Of a stretch of 64,000 bases of DNA, positions 27,391 to 32,947 are shown in pieces. This DNA comes from an uncultured Acidimicrobiaceae bacterium. GTDB lineage: Bacteria > Actinomycetota > Acidimicrobiia > Acidimicrobiales > RAAP-2. Where the stretch lies: assembly GCA_963805665.1 (NCBI GenBank), contig CAWDVF010000011.1, forward strand, positions 393,966 to 457,965, given 5' to 3'. The notes beneath the pieces are model-generated. The model had not been told where the DNA came from and did no database searches. It worked only from the letters and a program-made list of their open reading frames with translations. Position 1 is the first letter of the stretch; each line of letters begins with the position of its first letter. The position numbers and the translations under genes were made by a program.

Positions 27391-27803
27391 ATCATGCGCT
27401 CGGCGGGCACTACTCCAGTCTTTTGACTGAATAGGCGCCGCCTGGCTACCTATAAGGCAGCCCCTGAGCGTTCCAAAGCGAGCACGAGCGATTATGTCCC
27501 CAAGCCCTCGGCCGATTAGTACCGGTCGGCTGAATGCATTGCTGCACTTACACCTCCGGCCTATCAACGTGGTCGTCTAGCCACGGGCCTTACCAGGTTA
27601 ACCCTGTGGGAGATTTCATCTCGAAACGGGCTTCGCACTTAGATGCTTTCAGCGCTTATCCCACCCGTAGGTCGCAAACCAGCCGTGCCCTTGGCAGGAC
27701 AACTGGCACACGAGAGCTACGTCCGTCCCGGTCCTCTCGTACTAGGGACAGCCTTTCTCAAATCTCCTACGGCTGCATCGGATAGGGACCGAACTGTCTC
27801 ACG

Positions 27804-28544
27804 CATGTTGATCCCGCATTACTGCGGGCACAGACTATACCTTCACCCTCTTTCGAGGGGCTGGCGTGTTATGGCTTCCACAGGGGTCTGCGGACCGAGG
27901 TTTCGGTCTAAAGAAGCCATCTCTTCGCTGTTGCTGGCGAAGAAGTCGTTACAGGGGCACAACACGCCCATGCTACGTAGATGTTGCTCGACATCTACGG
28001 CGGAAATCCGCTTCGTTTTTGAATAGTTTAGGGTTGCAAACGCATCTACTTGGCGTGCCAGTTGCAGGAACACTTCCGGATCTCTCACTCGTCCGAGGAG
28101 AGGGAGGATCGCAAGCGCTTCCCTGACGTGCTCTCGCTTGAAGATCACGTAGGGCTCGACTTCCTGAAGAAGGCAGACGACGAGTTCTCGGCTTGTGATC
28201 ACAAGATCACTCATGCCGGTTCCTCGATCTCGAAGGTAACCACCGCCGCCGATGAGGGACTGGATCTGCTCCAGGCCCGCTCGGGCAGAGGTGGACTGCG
28301 AGAACGAAACGCTGGCCCGGATGTAAAACCCGAACCGGTATTCCTTCTGCCTGACGAGTTGGAAGTGGATACTTCCGTCCCCGTCTAGGAATCCTGCAAC
28401 ATAGGACGCTGTAGATACATTCACTGTGTGTTGGCCTTCCCTCGGTATTGCCCTGAACATGAACGTTCGGTAGTTCGTTCAGGGTTTCACCGATATGAGC
28501 CAGTGAGCACCCAGAAATTACTTTCTGGGGACGCAGTGTTATCT
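27804..28544 (-). mobile_element. Group I intron (741 nt) in 23S rRNA after the U equivalent to E. coli U2593 (the I-CreI site), carrying a LAGLIDADG ORF
   Basis: The exon sequence GGGTTTAGAACGT|...|CGTGAGACAGTTCGG is continuous once 27804-28544 is removed. The 5' exon ends in U and the intron ends in G. GNRA-capped hairpins: CCCAGAAA-GUAA-UUUCUGGG (28510-28529), CCCUC-GAAA-GAGGG, CCCGCA-GUAA-UGCGGG (27813-27828). A J8/7-like AAGGUAUAGUC lies at 27833-27843. Nested long-range pairs: GGCGUGUU/AACACGCC and AUGGCUUC/GAAGCCAU. Confidence 0.85.
27843..28460 (-). CDS. LAGLIDADG homing endonuclease, single-motif I-CreI-like family
   Basis: Intact 205-aa ORF inside the intron: YVAGFLDGDGSIHFQL..., GYLRDRGTGMSDLVITS, LQEVEPYVIFKRE, TLNYSKTKRISAVDVEQHL. 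This parallels I-CreI (YLAGFVDGDGSI, GYVRDRGSVSDYILS, ALNDSKTRKTT) as I recall it. The last ~45 codons overlap the structured ribozyme 3' core and are probably not part of the enzyme fold. Confidence 0.85.
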   Translation of the reverse strand: MFRAIPREGQHTVNVSTASYVAGFLDGDGSIHFQLVRQKEYRFGFYIRASVSFSQSTSARAGLEQIQSLIGGGGYLRDRGTGMSDLVITSRELVVCLLQEVEPYVIFKREHVREALAILPLLGRVRDPEVFLQLARQVDAFATLNYSKTKRISAVDVEQHLRSMGVLCPCNDFFASNSEEMASLDRNLGPQTPVEAITRQPLERG

Positions 28545-28875
28545 ACGTTCTAAACCCAGCTCGCGTACCGCTTTAATGGGCGAACAGCCCAACCCTTGGG
28601 ACCGGCTTCAGCCCCAGGATGCGACGAGCCGACATCGAGGTGCCAAACCTTCCCGTCGATATGGACTCTTGGGGAAGATGAGCCTGTTATCCCCGGGGTA
28701 CCTTTTATCCGTTGAGCAACGGCGCTTCCACAAGCAACCGCTGGATCACTATGCCCTGCTTTCGCACCTGCTCGACTTGTAGGTCTCGCAGTCAAGCTCC
28801 CTTTTGCCATTGCACTCGACAGCTGATTGCCAACCAGCCTGAGGGAACCTTTGGGCGCCTCCGTTACGTTTTAGG

Positions 28876-29796: not shown

Positions 29797-30127
29797 AGGC
29801 GACCGCCCCAGTCAAACTACCCACCTGACGCTGTTCCTGATCCGGATTACGGACCGAGGTTAGAGCTCCGGCACTAAAAGGGTGGTATTTCAAGGTTGAC
29901 TCCACACTGGCTAGCGCCAATGCTTCAAAGTCTCCCACCTATCCTACACAAACAGTACCAAAACTCAACATCAAGCTGTAGTAAAGGTCCACGGGGTCTT
30001 TCCGTCCTGATGCAGCTAACGAGCATCTTTACTCGTACTTCAATTTCGCCGGGTCTGTGGTTGAGACAGTAGGAAAGTCGTTACGCCATTCGTGCAGGTC
30101 GGAACTTACCCGACAAGGAATTTCGCT

Positions 30128-30501
30128 CATTCTGTTACATCCAATCAACAATGTTGTTTGCTGATTAGCGGACCGGTCGTTTCCGCCGGTCTCCCCACGT
30201 CGCCGTGGGGATCGGACCATAACTTCAACTCACAGGGACTACCTATATGGCCTGTGAGGTGGTCGGCGTTTGGTCTCTGAGGATTCTCAGGACTTCAGAT
30301 GGATCACTCCATTCGAAGACCAGAGTCTTTCCTGCTGATTGTCCGCACCGAACGGATTGTCACTACCCACATACAAACGATCAAGACCGCTTGTGACATG
30401 GATGAGTACCGTCGGATACTCGGAGTTTCCAGCATATGGCCGACTACTCACCGCGCCGTTACCGACACGGGGCAGCACCCATTGCACTCTATGGGAAATC
30501 T
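30128..30501 (-). mobile_element. ORF-less group I intron (374 nt) in 23S rRNA after the U equivalent to E. coli U1931
   Basis: The exon CGGTCCTAAGGT|...|AGCGAAATTCCTTGTCGGG is continuous once 30128-30501 is removed. The 5' exon ends in U and the intron ends in G (..AACAGAATG). A P7-like pair GCGGAC/GUCCGC lies at 30341-30346 with 30168-30173. Hairpins: CCCCACG-GCGA-CGUGGGG, CUCACAGG...CCUGUGAG, CUGAG-AAUC-CUCAG. No ORF carries nuclease motifs. Confidence 0.8.
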
Positions 30502-32947
30502 ACCTTAGGACCGTTATAGTTACGGCCGCCGTTTACCGGGGCTTAGGTTCAGAGCTTCGCCCGAGGACTAACCCTTCCCCGTAACCTTCCGGCACCGGGC
30601 AGGCGTCAGAGCGTATACATCGTCTTACGACTTCGCACGCTCCTGTGTTTTTAGTAAACAGTCGCTTTCCCCAATTCTCTGCGGCCCCTTCGGGCATCCG
30701 GACGCGAAGTCCTTCACCCTATCGAGGCCCTCCTTCTCCCGAAGTTACGGAGGAATTTTGCCGAGTTCCTTAACCACAGTTCTCCCGATCGCCTTGGTAT
30801 TCTCTACCCGCCCACCTGTGTTGGTTTGGGGTACGGGTACCGTGTCAACTCGCTAGAAGCTTTTCTAGGCAGCATAGAATCAGTGACTTCGCCTGAAACG
30901 GCTCGGCATCGCGTCTCAGGATTAATGGGACCCGGATTTACCTAGATCCCTCCCTACACGCTTACCCCAGGACAACCAACGCCTGGGCTCACCTATCTTC
31001 CTGCGTCCCTCCTTTGCTGTCCGCCCCAGGGTTTGTCGGTTCGACCCGAAGGTCATCCCCTTAGTACCCCTGGCTTGGAATGGGCGTGGACACGGTAGTA
31101 CTGGAATATCAACCAGTTGTGCATCGACTACGCCTCTCGGCCTCGCCTTAGCTCCCGACTTACCCTGGGAGGATTAGCCTTCCCCAGGAACCCTTGGGCT
31201 TACGGCGGAGGAGTTTCTCACTCCTCTCTCGCTACTCATACCAGCATTCGCACTCGACCACGCTCCACGACGGTTCACACCGCCGCTTCGCTGCGAGATC
31301 GACGCTCCCCTACCACTCCCGTCTAATGACGGAAATCCGCGGCTTCGGCTCTTGACTTGAGCCCCGTTACATTGTCCGCGCAGGACCACTCGACCAGTGA
31401 GCTATTACGCACTCTTTTAAGGGTGGCTGCTTCTAAGCCAACCTCCTGGCTGTCTTTGCGTTCCCACATCGTTTTCCACTTAGTCAAGAATTTGGGGCCT
31501 TAGCCGGCGGTCTGGGCTGTTTCCCTTTCGACCAACGAAGCTCATCCCTCGTGGTCTCACTGCCGGGTTCTTGAGCATCGGCATTCGGAGTTTAGTTGGG
31601 GTCAGTAAGCTTGTAGGCCCCCTAGCCCATCCAGTGCTCTACCTCCGATGCTGAACACCCGACGCTGCACCTAAATGCATTTCGGGGAGAACCAGCTATC
31701 ACCGAGTTTGATTGGCCTTTCACCCCTTGCCACAGGTCATCCCCCCAGTTTTCAACCTAGGTGGGTTCGGCCCTCCACGAAGTCTTACCTTCGCTTCAGC
31801 CTGCCCATGGCAAGCTCACTCGGCTTCGGGTCTACAGCATGCGACTCAACGCCCTATTCAGACTCGCTTTCGCTTCGGCTACCCATCACTGGTTAACCTC
31901 GCCACACACCGTAACTCGCTGGCTCATTCTTCAAAAGGCACGCCATCACGGCTGACACCCATCTGATGCCATCAATCTCACCCGAAGGGATCATGATGAC
32001 GATGGGGCAACGACGCTTTGACTGTTTGTAAGCCAACGGTTTCAGGTACTATTTCACTCCCCTCCCGGGGTACTTTTCACCTTTCCCTCACGGTACTAGT
32101 TCACTATCGGTCGTCTAAGAGTACTTAGCCTTACGAGATGGTCCTCGCAGATTCACGCCGGCTTTCCCGGATCCGGCGCTACTCGGGAGTTCAAGCGGAG
32201 TTCAATGCTTTTCGTGTACGGGACCATTACCCTCTGCGGTTCAGCTTTCCTGACTGATTCCACTAAACATTGAATTTGTAACTCCGTGACGGGTCTGGTG
32301 CCCCATCTCTCAAATCCCACAACCCCATACCGGCAACGCCACCAGGCTCATACACCGGCACGGTTTAGGCTCTTCCCGTTTCGCTCGCCGCTACTCAGGG
32401 AGTCACTGTTGTTTTCCTTTCCTCGGGTTACTTAGATGTTTCAATTCACCCGGTTCCCTCGCCCCGCCCTATACATTCAGGCGGGTGTAACACCTCATGA
32501 CAGGTGCTGGGTTGCCCCATTCGGACATCCACGGATCGACGCTTGGTAGACAGCTCCCCGTGGCTTTTCGCAGTCGCCCACGTCCTTCTTCGGCCTTAGA
32601 CGCCAAGGCATCCACCGTTGGCTCTTTGTAGCTTGGAGAACAAAGATGCTCGTGCTCGCTTTGGAATTCTCAAGGGGCTGCGCAGCGCAATCCTGGGCCG
32701 GGACTCTCGAGCAGCGCACGCATCGCGCACATACAGGAGAGCAATTAACCCCCGACCGGGGTTTGCACGGGGTGAGCGGTCCTTGCCGGCGGGCTGAGTT
32801 GCAGCTCGATGCCGCAGCTGGCCACGAGGAGCACACAAAAGGGCTCGACTCGCACCGGCCGGCGGCGCCGCGCTGCGGCACACCGAAAGGGACGTCACCA
32901 GGGATTCGACGCGCCCGACCAACAGGCCGGGCGCAAGTCGCTCCCTC

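Follow-up and report, generated by a model that had tools for sequence, protein, structure and literature searches.

Three putatively mobile group I introns interrupt the 23S rRNA gene of an uncultured Acidimicrobiaceae bacterium

What are the three inserts that interrupt the 23S ribosomal RNA (rRNA) gene in a 64,000-nucleotide stretch of DNA from an uncultured soil bacterium of the Acidimicrobiaceae (contig CAWDVF010000011.1 of assembly GCA_963805665.1; the whole stretch is referred to below as the window), and does the gene yield a normal rRNA in spite of them? An earlier interpretation of the letters, which we call the sequence-only reading, had proposed that they are group I introns, two of them encoding LAGLIDADG proteins. 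Here we conclude, with a probability that we put at about 0.88, that the three inserts are mobile group I introns, situated directly after U1931, U2262 and U2593 (Escherichia coli numbering), which are presumably spliced and have presumably spread by homing. Throughout, L1931, L2262, L2593 and similar names denote insertion sites in the 23S rRNA by E. coli numbering, and labels such as L003 or L012 denote loci of relatives.

The gene lies on the minus strand and is divided into four exons: exon 1 (30502..32638, 2137 nucleotides (nt), E. coli 1-1931, the Rfam large-subunit match starting at 32638), exon 2 (29797..30127, 331 nt, E. coli 1932-2262), exon 3 (28545..28875, 331 nt, E. coli 2263-2593) and exon 4 (27496..27803, 308 nt, E. 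coli 2594-2904), the last of which, when scanned alone, matches positions 2592-2925 of the Rfam large-subunit model with 273.7 bits. The inserts between them occupy the intervals first proposed. Intron 1 (L1931; 30501..30128, 374 nt) begins AGAUUU and ends AGAAUG, and is flanked by CCUAAGGU upstream and AGCGAAAUU downstream; intron 2 (L2262; 29796..28876, 921 nt) begins UAACAA and ends CAGUUUG, between GGUCGCCU and CCUAAAACG; and intron 3 (L2593; 28544..27804, 741 nt) begins AGAUAA and ends CAACAUG, between UAGAACGU and CGUGAGACAG. Excision of all three restores a colinear 23S of 2137+331+331+308 = 3107 nt that aligns end to end with E. coli 23S in a global alignment, and segments of 31 nt at each junction are identical or nearly so to the E. 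coli sequence.

The E. coli 23S copy used in that alignment is 2907 nt long, and the junctions follow its positions 1934, 2265 and 2596. Its numbering is offset by +3 from the standard landmark numbers, at all landmarks checked between 1908 and 2654, and the sites are therefore U1931/A1932, U2262/C2263 and U2593/C2594, where the sequence-only reading had also placed them. All three sites lie in the conserved core of 23S, in domains IV and V, and at each of them the 5' exon ends in U and the insert in G, again as first read. The same sites are found empty in relatives: the 23S is uninterrupted at 1931 and 2262 in L008, L020 and L059 (23S 97-98% identical), and at 2593 in L084. Without an intron the L2593 junction reads TAGAACGT followed directly by CGTGAGACAGTTCG, and the L2262 junction region reads GGTCGCCT followed by CCTAAAAC. 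This presence/absence polymorphism fixes the boundaries of the inserts exactly and shows that they are no artefact of alignment. The inserts had also been described as visibly less G+C-rich than both exons and genome; this is true with respect to the flanks (71.5% G+C), but the difference from the exons is marginal (54.3% versus 55.8%, with exon 2 at 51.4%). Since introns and exons are so nearly equal, composition gives no sign of foreignness relative to the rRNA.

The nature of each insert follows from its fold and its homologues. Intron 1 is matched by the general Rfam group I model, Intron_gpI (RF00028), with 57.3 bits (threshold 50; E 6e-12; model positions 1-253; match at 30516..30193), in an alignment that displays P3, P4, P6, J6/7-P7, P8, J8/7 and P9, and it also matches a profile of 13 L1931 introns from other genomes (nhmmer E 3e-87). 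Its P1, GGUAG/CUGCC, spans the splice site, with GGU upstream and AG downstream of it and the 3' strand at 30471-30475, and contains the U.G pair; P2 lies at 30451-30470, P3 at 30439-30444 with 30262-30267, P4 at 30429-30434 with 30333-30338, P7 at 30271-30275 with 30215-30219, P8 at 30228-30259 and P9 at 30193-30210. A P5a hairpin, GAGUA/UACUC, was considered and dropped for a long-range helix, CCGACGG/CCGUUCGG, that shows at least four compensatory changes. The L1931 introns of L012, L077, L071 and L002 carry an open reading frame (ORF) of about 400 nt for a LAGLIDADG_1 protein in P6, which is absent from intron 1. We therefore read intron 1 as a group I ribozyme whose endonuclease gene has probably been lost by a clean deletion of about 400 nt.

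The core of intron 2 is a paralogue of the intron 1 family residing at a different site, because the L1931 family profile matches it from P3 to P9.1 with nhmmer E 1.1e-19. RNAalifold applied to 14 L1931 and five L2262 sequences yields a shared fold with P2, P4, P5, a long-range P5b, P5c, P7, P8, P9 and P9.1. In its 54 pairs 97.3% of the cells are paired, as against 83% after shuffling and 28-42% when the partners are slid, and 26 of the pairs show compensatory changes. P7 is invariant and hence uninformative for covariation. P3, by contrast, covaries both within the L2593 family and between the other two: the L1931 introns have GUCGGC/GCCGAC and the L2262 introns CUCUCG/CGAGAG. In intron 2 itself P1 is UCGCCU/GGGCGA (3' strand 29781-29786), followed by P2 (29765-29778), P3 (29749-29754 with 29598-29603), P4 (29738-29743 with 29641-29646), P7 (29607-29611 with 29568-29572), P8 (29581-29596) and P9 (29546-29563). 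As to the subgroup of introns 1 and 2, the site offers an analogy: IB4 is the usual class at L1931, archaeal L1931 introns are IB4 (PMC6125680), and the cyanobacterial ones were called IC1-like by Haugen et al. (PMC1995217).

The endonuclease gene of intron 2 (28883..29507, minus strand) occupies the loop of a terminal hairpin, P9.2 (stem 29515-29521 with 28889-28895), and L2262 introns of 305-333 nt that lack an ORF are found in L003, L013, L025 and L028. With X at the internal stop, its translation matches Pfam PF03161 (LAGLIDADG_2) over profile positions 1-167 of 168 (E 1.7e-38) and I-SceI in the PDB (1r7m) over almost its full length (E 2e-19). The sequence-only reading was right that two of the inserts contain LAGLIDADG frames, but the one in intron 2 is broken twice. 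An in-frame TAA at 29048..29046 (codon 154) aligns with a Glu in the 'EVEYL' of I-SceI and is replaced by Gln, Ser or Tyr in orthologues, and a frameshift within 28911-28934 lies upstream of the conserved ending LPSMRYKLSG, which the window reaches in another frame only; the ancestral stop is the TAA at 28885..28883, within the conserved GGGCUAACAG tail. An intact frame of this I-SceI-type family is expected to run to about 207-235 amino acids (aa), which the intron 2 ORF does not, and we regard it as a pseudogene. Orthologues at L2262 in L015 and L064 are intact, with 207 aa up to the same ending and stop, and those in L036 and L069 are frameshifted. The family has 745 database homologues, most of them of exactly 207 aa. 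The three members that were examined all sit at 23S L2262, and the two with sufficient exon sequence (L082 and L084) belong to related genes of Acidimicrobiales type. At L084 (6632-8016) an L2262 intron with an intact endonuclease gene is accompanied by an L2604 intron of about 746 nt, and the L2593 site of this locus, being empty, offers the intron 3 enzyme a natural target without an intron.

For intron 3 a fold was derived from 55 distinct homologous copies. It comprises P1-P5, three hairpins after the ORF body, P7, P7.1, P7.2, P8, P9.0 and P9; 99.1% of its 75 pairs are paired, against 37-46% when the partners are slid by 1-3 columns, and compensatory changes occur in 32 of the 75. P1 is ACGU/GCGU (3' strand 28531-28534), P2 lies at 28510-28529, P3 at 28499-28503 with 27861-27865, P4-P5 at 28442-28493, P7 at 27945-27947 with 27833-27835, P7.1 at 27921-27944, P7.2 at 27871-27920, P8 at 27846-27859, J8/7 at 27836-27844 and P9 at 27813-27828. 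P9.0 is GUG/CAU, directly before the terminal G, and covaries among the L2593 copies (GUG:CAU, AUG:CAU, GUG:CAC, GCG:CGU); the U.G pair of P1 and the terminal G of the intron are present in 55/55 of them. P7.1 and P7.2 have 8 base pairs each, with compensatory changes in seven and four respectively. These features point to an IA-type core (the IA3-type of L2593 introns), with a P7.1/P7.2 extension between P7 and the 3' strand of P3. P7.1/P7.2, the short P2 and the short P5 agree with the published description of the Synechococcus L2593 intron (PMC1995217). Two other placements of the P7 5' strand were rejected: CAGAC belongs to a local covarying hairpin (the loop of P7.2) that is absent from divergent copies, and GUAGAU forms a covarying hairpin, hB. 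The final P7 is (C)GAC/GUC, followed by P7.1 and P7.2. The GCGGAC/GUCCGC pair that had been put forward as P7-like is thus not P7, which is GACCA/UGGUC in introns 1 and 2 and GAC/GUC in intron 3; CGGA forms the 3' strand of P5, and GGUCCGC comprises that of P9.1 together with the linker.

The ORF of intron 3 (27843..28460, minus strand) is uninterrupted and runs for 205 aa from an ATG at 28460, although the true start is likely the GTG at 28424 (193 aa), because the database homologues are mostly of 193 aa. The protein matches Pfam PF00961 (LAGLIDADG_1) and, in the PDB, I-MsoI (E 8e-17; a tandem construct 3e-35), I-CvuI (E 4e-18) and I-CreI (E 2e-17). Residues 11-167 align with the I-CreI/I-MsoI family, and the single motif, AGFLDGDGSI, is conserved. 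We take the gene to be an intact homing endonuclease gene of the I-CreI/I-MsoI/I-CvuI family. It has 823 database homologues, the best 120 at 75-95% identity and mostly 193 aa long. The 3' part of the ORF, about 200 nt, overlaps the ribozyme helices P6x, P7, P7.1, P7.2, the 3' strand of P3, and P8. In L077 (6866-7246, 381 nt) and L081 (379 nt) the body of the L2593 gene has been deleted and the last 200 nt or so have been kept; the kept part corresponds to residues 138-205 (83-96% identity) and overlaps the covarying hairpins and P7.1/P7.2. It appears to be needed as RNA, because the deletions spare exactly the part that overlaps the ribozyme.

A model for the behaviour of these elements can be formulated as follows. 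P1 would form between an internal guide sequence and the last bases of the 5' exon, placing a U.G wobble at the splice site, and P3-P9 would form the catalytic core, with the terminal G following P9.0. Two guanosine-dependent transesterifications would then remove each intron from the pre-rRNA and restore a normal 23S. At the DNA level, the LAGLIDADG endonuclease would cut an intron-less 23S allele, and repair would copy the intron in. The protein of the Thermotoga L1931 intron reportedly has a maturase-like activity, and that of intron 3 may likewise aid folding. Three stages of the homing cycle, with its gain, decay and loss, are represented in this single gene, the endonuclease gene being intact at L2593, decaying at L2262 and lost at L1931.

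Several points weigh against this interpretation. The sequences themselves establish the insertion sites, the covarying folds, the endonuclease families, the condition of each frame and the polymorphism among relatives; splicing in vivo with exon ligation, endonuclease activity and homing are inferred from them. RF00028 does not match introns 2 and 3 (E ≤ 1 to 10), nor, at E ≤ 10, the ORF-less homologues of intron 3 (L077, 381 nt) and of intron 2 (L013). The sequence-only reading had itself proposed an Intron_gpI scan in which the absence of a match would speak against group I introns; intron 1 was matched, and for introns 2 and 3 that absence is, taken literally, what was found. We attribute these misses to the low sensitivity of the model, because homology and covariation mark both inserts as group I introns. 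The same scan does match the introns of relatives at L1911, L1923 and L2604 and one 16S intron, and in a published survey of Archaea RF00028 detected none of the group I introns that were found with subgroup models (PMC6125680). For introns 2 and 3 the nhmmer profile and the counts of covarying pairs were used in its place; an all-against-all covariation listing was discarded as too permissive. On these grounds the assignment of all three inserts to group I is upheld, for intron 1 by Rfam, for intron 2 by nhmmer and covariation and for intron 3 by covariation in 55 copies. As to the pseudogene in intron 2, its frameshift could be an assembly indel error if the source is long-read data; an error is less likely to account for the TAA. 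The last point concerns the terminal base of the L1931 family: 17/19 of the relatives of intron 1 lack a terminal G, which makes a canonical second step of splicing doubtful for the family.

This last anomaly lends some weight to an alternative that we consider improbable but the best of those available, namely that the inserts derive from group I introns and that at least one of them, most plausibly that at L1931, is not canonically spliced, being either retained as an expansion of the rRNA or removed by nucleases to leave a fragmented 23S. Members of the intron 1 family have a conserved GUAACAG tail followed by 4-5 nt, and among the 19 distinct copies A1932 is preceded by A in 11, by C in three, by U in three and by G in two, the G-ending copies being those of the window and L018 only; L003 (6589-6916), L012, L024 and L025 exemplify the family. 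Introns at the seven other sites invariably end in G (55/55 at L2593 and 10/10 at L2262). Most introns of the L1931 family begin with AG and so mimic A1932-G1933. A register shifted by +2, which places the intron at 1933, was considered and rejected: with it every copy would end in G, but the pair at the 5' splice site would become G-C, and A1932 would be altered in L002/L070 and L015. P7, which binds G, is invariant in the family, and a compensating change was sought there and not found. The non-G ends could reflect non-canonical use of the 3' splice site, retention or fragmentation of the rRNA. The Simkania L1931 intron, SnLSU.1, is reportedly unspliced (work cited in PMC11270868 and PMC1995217), and a Coxiella 23S intron reportedly lacks the canonical terminal G (work cited in PMC11270868); no other precedents are known to us for 3' ends without G such as those of this family.

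Against retention or fragmentation in the window stands the copy itself, whose last base is G and whose P1, with its U.G pair, is intact. In addition, J6/7, P7, J8/7, P3 and P4 are nearly invariant in the L1931 family, which argues that catalysis has been retained, and site 1931 lies at the subunit interface, where an insert of 374 nt should be harmful. Since the window copy ends in G, the anomaly leaves the overall verdict unchanged, yet it lowers confidence in conventional splicing of the family.

Much less probable is that the inserts are ordinary intervening sequences (IVS), excised by RNase III without ligation of the exons. Fragmented 23S rRNAs are common in bacteria, and Rfam is blind to two of the three inserts. 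Known IVS, however, are located at the tips of variable helices such as H9, H25 and H45. Two insertion sites of CPR bacteria, 23IS2 and 23IS4, have been placed in this category (PMC11270868). The inserts in the window lie instead within universally conserved sequence at classical homing sites, obey the U/G rule, carry LAGLIDADG genes and, unlike IVS, have covariation-backed group I cores that include the P3/P7 pseudoknot.

The origin of the locus was considered separately. The window contains a single rRNA (rrn) operon, in the order 16S-23S-5S on the minus strand according to an Rfam scan. The 16S gene (33171..34693) is uninterrupted and matches SSU_rRNA_bacteria with 1558.7 bits over model positions 1-1533, the 5S gene (27273..27389) matches 5S_rRNA with 118.7 bits, and the spacer between 16S and 23S contains no tRNA. 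MFD05705.bin.1.43 (L003/L004), a metagenome-assembled genome (MAG) labelled as uncultured Acidimicrobiaceae, has a 16S 99.87% identical to that of the window, and on either side of the operon the sequence aligns at 73-79% with the rrn flanks of more than 30 long MAG contigs. On the strength of the 16S identity, the homologous flanks and their 71.5% G+C, we assign the locus to an uncultured Acidimicrobiaceae bacterium and consider it genuinely actinobacterial rather than a chimera, in agreement with the high-G+C actinobacterial host first proposed. That foreign rDNA, organellar or from another organism, was misassembled onto actinobacterial flanks is suggested by the classically organellar character of L1931 and L2593 introns with such endonuclease families and by the frequency of assembly errors in rRNA operons, but it is scarcely credible. 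Many Acidimicrobiales MAG contigs, of 0.1-5.5 Mb, match the exons and the 16S at 97-100% identity and harbour these introns in a shared chromosomal neighbourhood, and independent samples have yielded at least 60 contigs with the same introns, some as long as 5.5 Mb. The spliced 23S of 3107 nt, moreover, has insertions relative to E. coli and a length typical of Actinobacteria.

How unusual is the gene among its relatives? With the intron 3 protein as query, 78 loci were found among species-representative genomes, nearly all in long-read MAGs labelled uncultured Acidimicrobiaceae or Acidimicrobiales, with a few other Actinomycetota and one from Chloroflexi; the closest related MAG chromosome is 5.6 Mb. 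Spliced alignment of about 60 related 23S genes revealed introns at eight sites and up to five per gene. Introns occur at L1911 in 17 loci, L1923 in 37, L1931 in 28, L1951 in seven, L2262 in ten, L2500 in one or two, L2593 in 61 (the site used as search bait) and L2604 in six. Five introns are present in L036 (L1911, L1923, L1931, L2262 and L2593) and in L024 (L1911, L1923, L1931, L2593 and L2604), where the exons between them shrink to 8-12 nt, for example 1911-1923 and 1923-1931. The gene in the window is thus ordinary within its clade, in which introns are the rule. The rarity that the sequence-only reading had invoked was overstated, given up to five introns per gene here and the published cases of Synechococcus C9 (PMC1995217) and the Candidate Phyla Radiation (CPR; PMC11270868).

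The introns also appear to turn over quickly. Compared with the window, L003/L004 have an additional intron at L1923 (778 nt) and a different sub-type of intron at L1931 (328 nt), while their L2262 intron lacks an ORF (305 nt) and their L2593 intron measures 738 nt. Because the intron sets differ although the 16S sequences are 99.87% identical, very recent gain and loss are implied. A group I intron also lies within the 16S of L025 (1384-1717; Intron_gpI 81.2 bits), where the score of the small-subunit model drops to 728 bits. Bacterial 16S introns have been called very rare outside giant sulfur bacteria and CPR. A wider proposal, for which we would claim rather less than even odds, is that the soil Acidimicrobiales, free-living Actinomycetota of high G+C, constitute a second and as yet undescribed lineage of intron-rich rDNA outside CPR, with turnover at eight or more 23S sites and in the 16S, an I-SceI-type L2262 intron and a non-G L1931 family that may be spliced non-canonically or not at all.

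The Acidimicrobiales clade contradicts the view that intron-rich rDNA is a peculiarity of CPR among bacteria: instead of the textbook 'handful of bacteria', group I introns would be a routine and fast-evolving component of rRNA genes in a whole order of abundant soil actinobacteria. There are practical consequences. The covariance-model scan of the whole window closes the 23S at 28506, inside intron 3 and about 1 kb early, omitting the last 308 nt, which were recovered only by a separate scan, and annotation pipelines will probably cut the 23S of such genomes short as well. Long ORFs at 26590-27426 and 32495-33061 overlap the 5S, the 3' flank of the 23S and the 16S-23S spacer on both strands, and are most likely artefacts of high G+C rather than genes. 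Assemblies from short reads are interrupted at these loci, with most homologues of both endonucleases lying on contigs of about 1 kb, and primers or probes that span 1931, 2262 or 2593 are expected to fail. Closely related genomes that differ in intron content provide a natural system for rates of intron gain and loss, the hundreds of I-CreI-family variants at 75-95% identity are a source of meganuclease diversity, and the non-G relatives at L1931 make the assumption of a terminal G in group I introns directly testable.

The kind of element described here is known, but no report of its occurrence in Actinomycetota was found. A full-text search, which covered few subscription journals, returned no paper on rRNA group I introns in Actinobacteria, Actinomycetota or Acidimicrobiia and none on an intron at 2262 of the large subunit, for which an earlier organellar record is possible. 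Among bacteria, Coxiella burnetii (Cbu.L1917 and Cbu.L1951) and Simkania (SnLSU.1, at L1931) are said to carry 23S group I introns in the same region, helices 69-71; these hosts are obligately intracellular, and the L1931 intron of the window ends in G. The yeast mitochondrial omega intron with I-SceI (L2449) shares its endonuclease family, PF03161, with intron 2, but the latter is inserted at 2262 instead of 2449 and its copy of the gene is a pseudogene. Intron 3 has its counterparts in the chloroplast L2593 introns that encode I-CreI, I-MsoI and I-CvuI, with which it shares the site, the endonuclease family, the motif and the catalytic Asp, and from which it differs in its bacterial host and in some 40 additional residues at the C-terminus of the protein, whose coding sequence overlaps ribozyme helices. 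Without the intron the junction reads TAGAACGTCGTGAGACAGTTCG, identical at 21/22 positions to the I-MsoI target, CAGAACGTCGTGAGACAGTTCG.

The two closest precedents are bacterial. In CPR/Patescibacteria many 23S introns have been described in domains IV and V, at 1917, 1931, 1952, 2593 and 2604, and as in the Acidimicrobiales they have site-specific LAGLIDADG genes and mix ORF-containing, ORF-degenerate and ORF-less forms among related genomes; for 'non-CPR bacteria' the authors state that introns are confined to few species (Tsurumaki et al., 2024; PMC11270868). Position 2262 does not appear in the main text or in one supplementary file of that paper (PMC11270868). CPR are episymbionts with reduced genomes, whereas the host of the window has flanks of 71.5% G+C and a closest MAG chromosome of 5.6 Mb. 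A single 23S gene with three group I introns, each bearing an endonuclease gene, was described in 2007 in Synechococcus sp. C9 (L1917, L1931 and L2593; PMC1995217). This strain, with three introns, and S. lividus C1, with two, are free-living and share with the window the presence of multiple 23S introns, including those at L1931 and L2593, and a single-motif LAGLIDADG ORF that runs into the ribozyme core, as it does here in intron 3 (PMC1995217). They differ in that the hosts are Cyanobacteria and the third site is L1917 rather than L2262, in that no I-SceI-type (LAGLIDADG_2) gene like that of intron 2 was reported, and in that all five of their endonuclease genes are of full length (PMC1995217), whereas in the window one has been deleted, one is a pseudogene and the third, at L2593, is intact.

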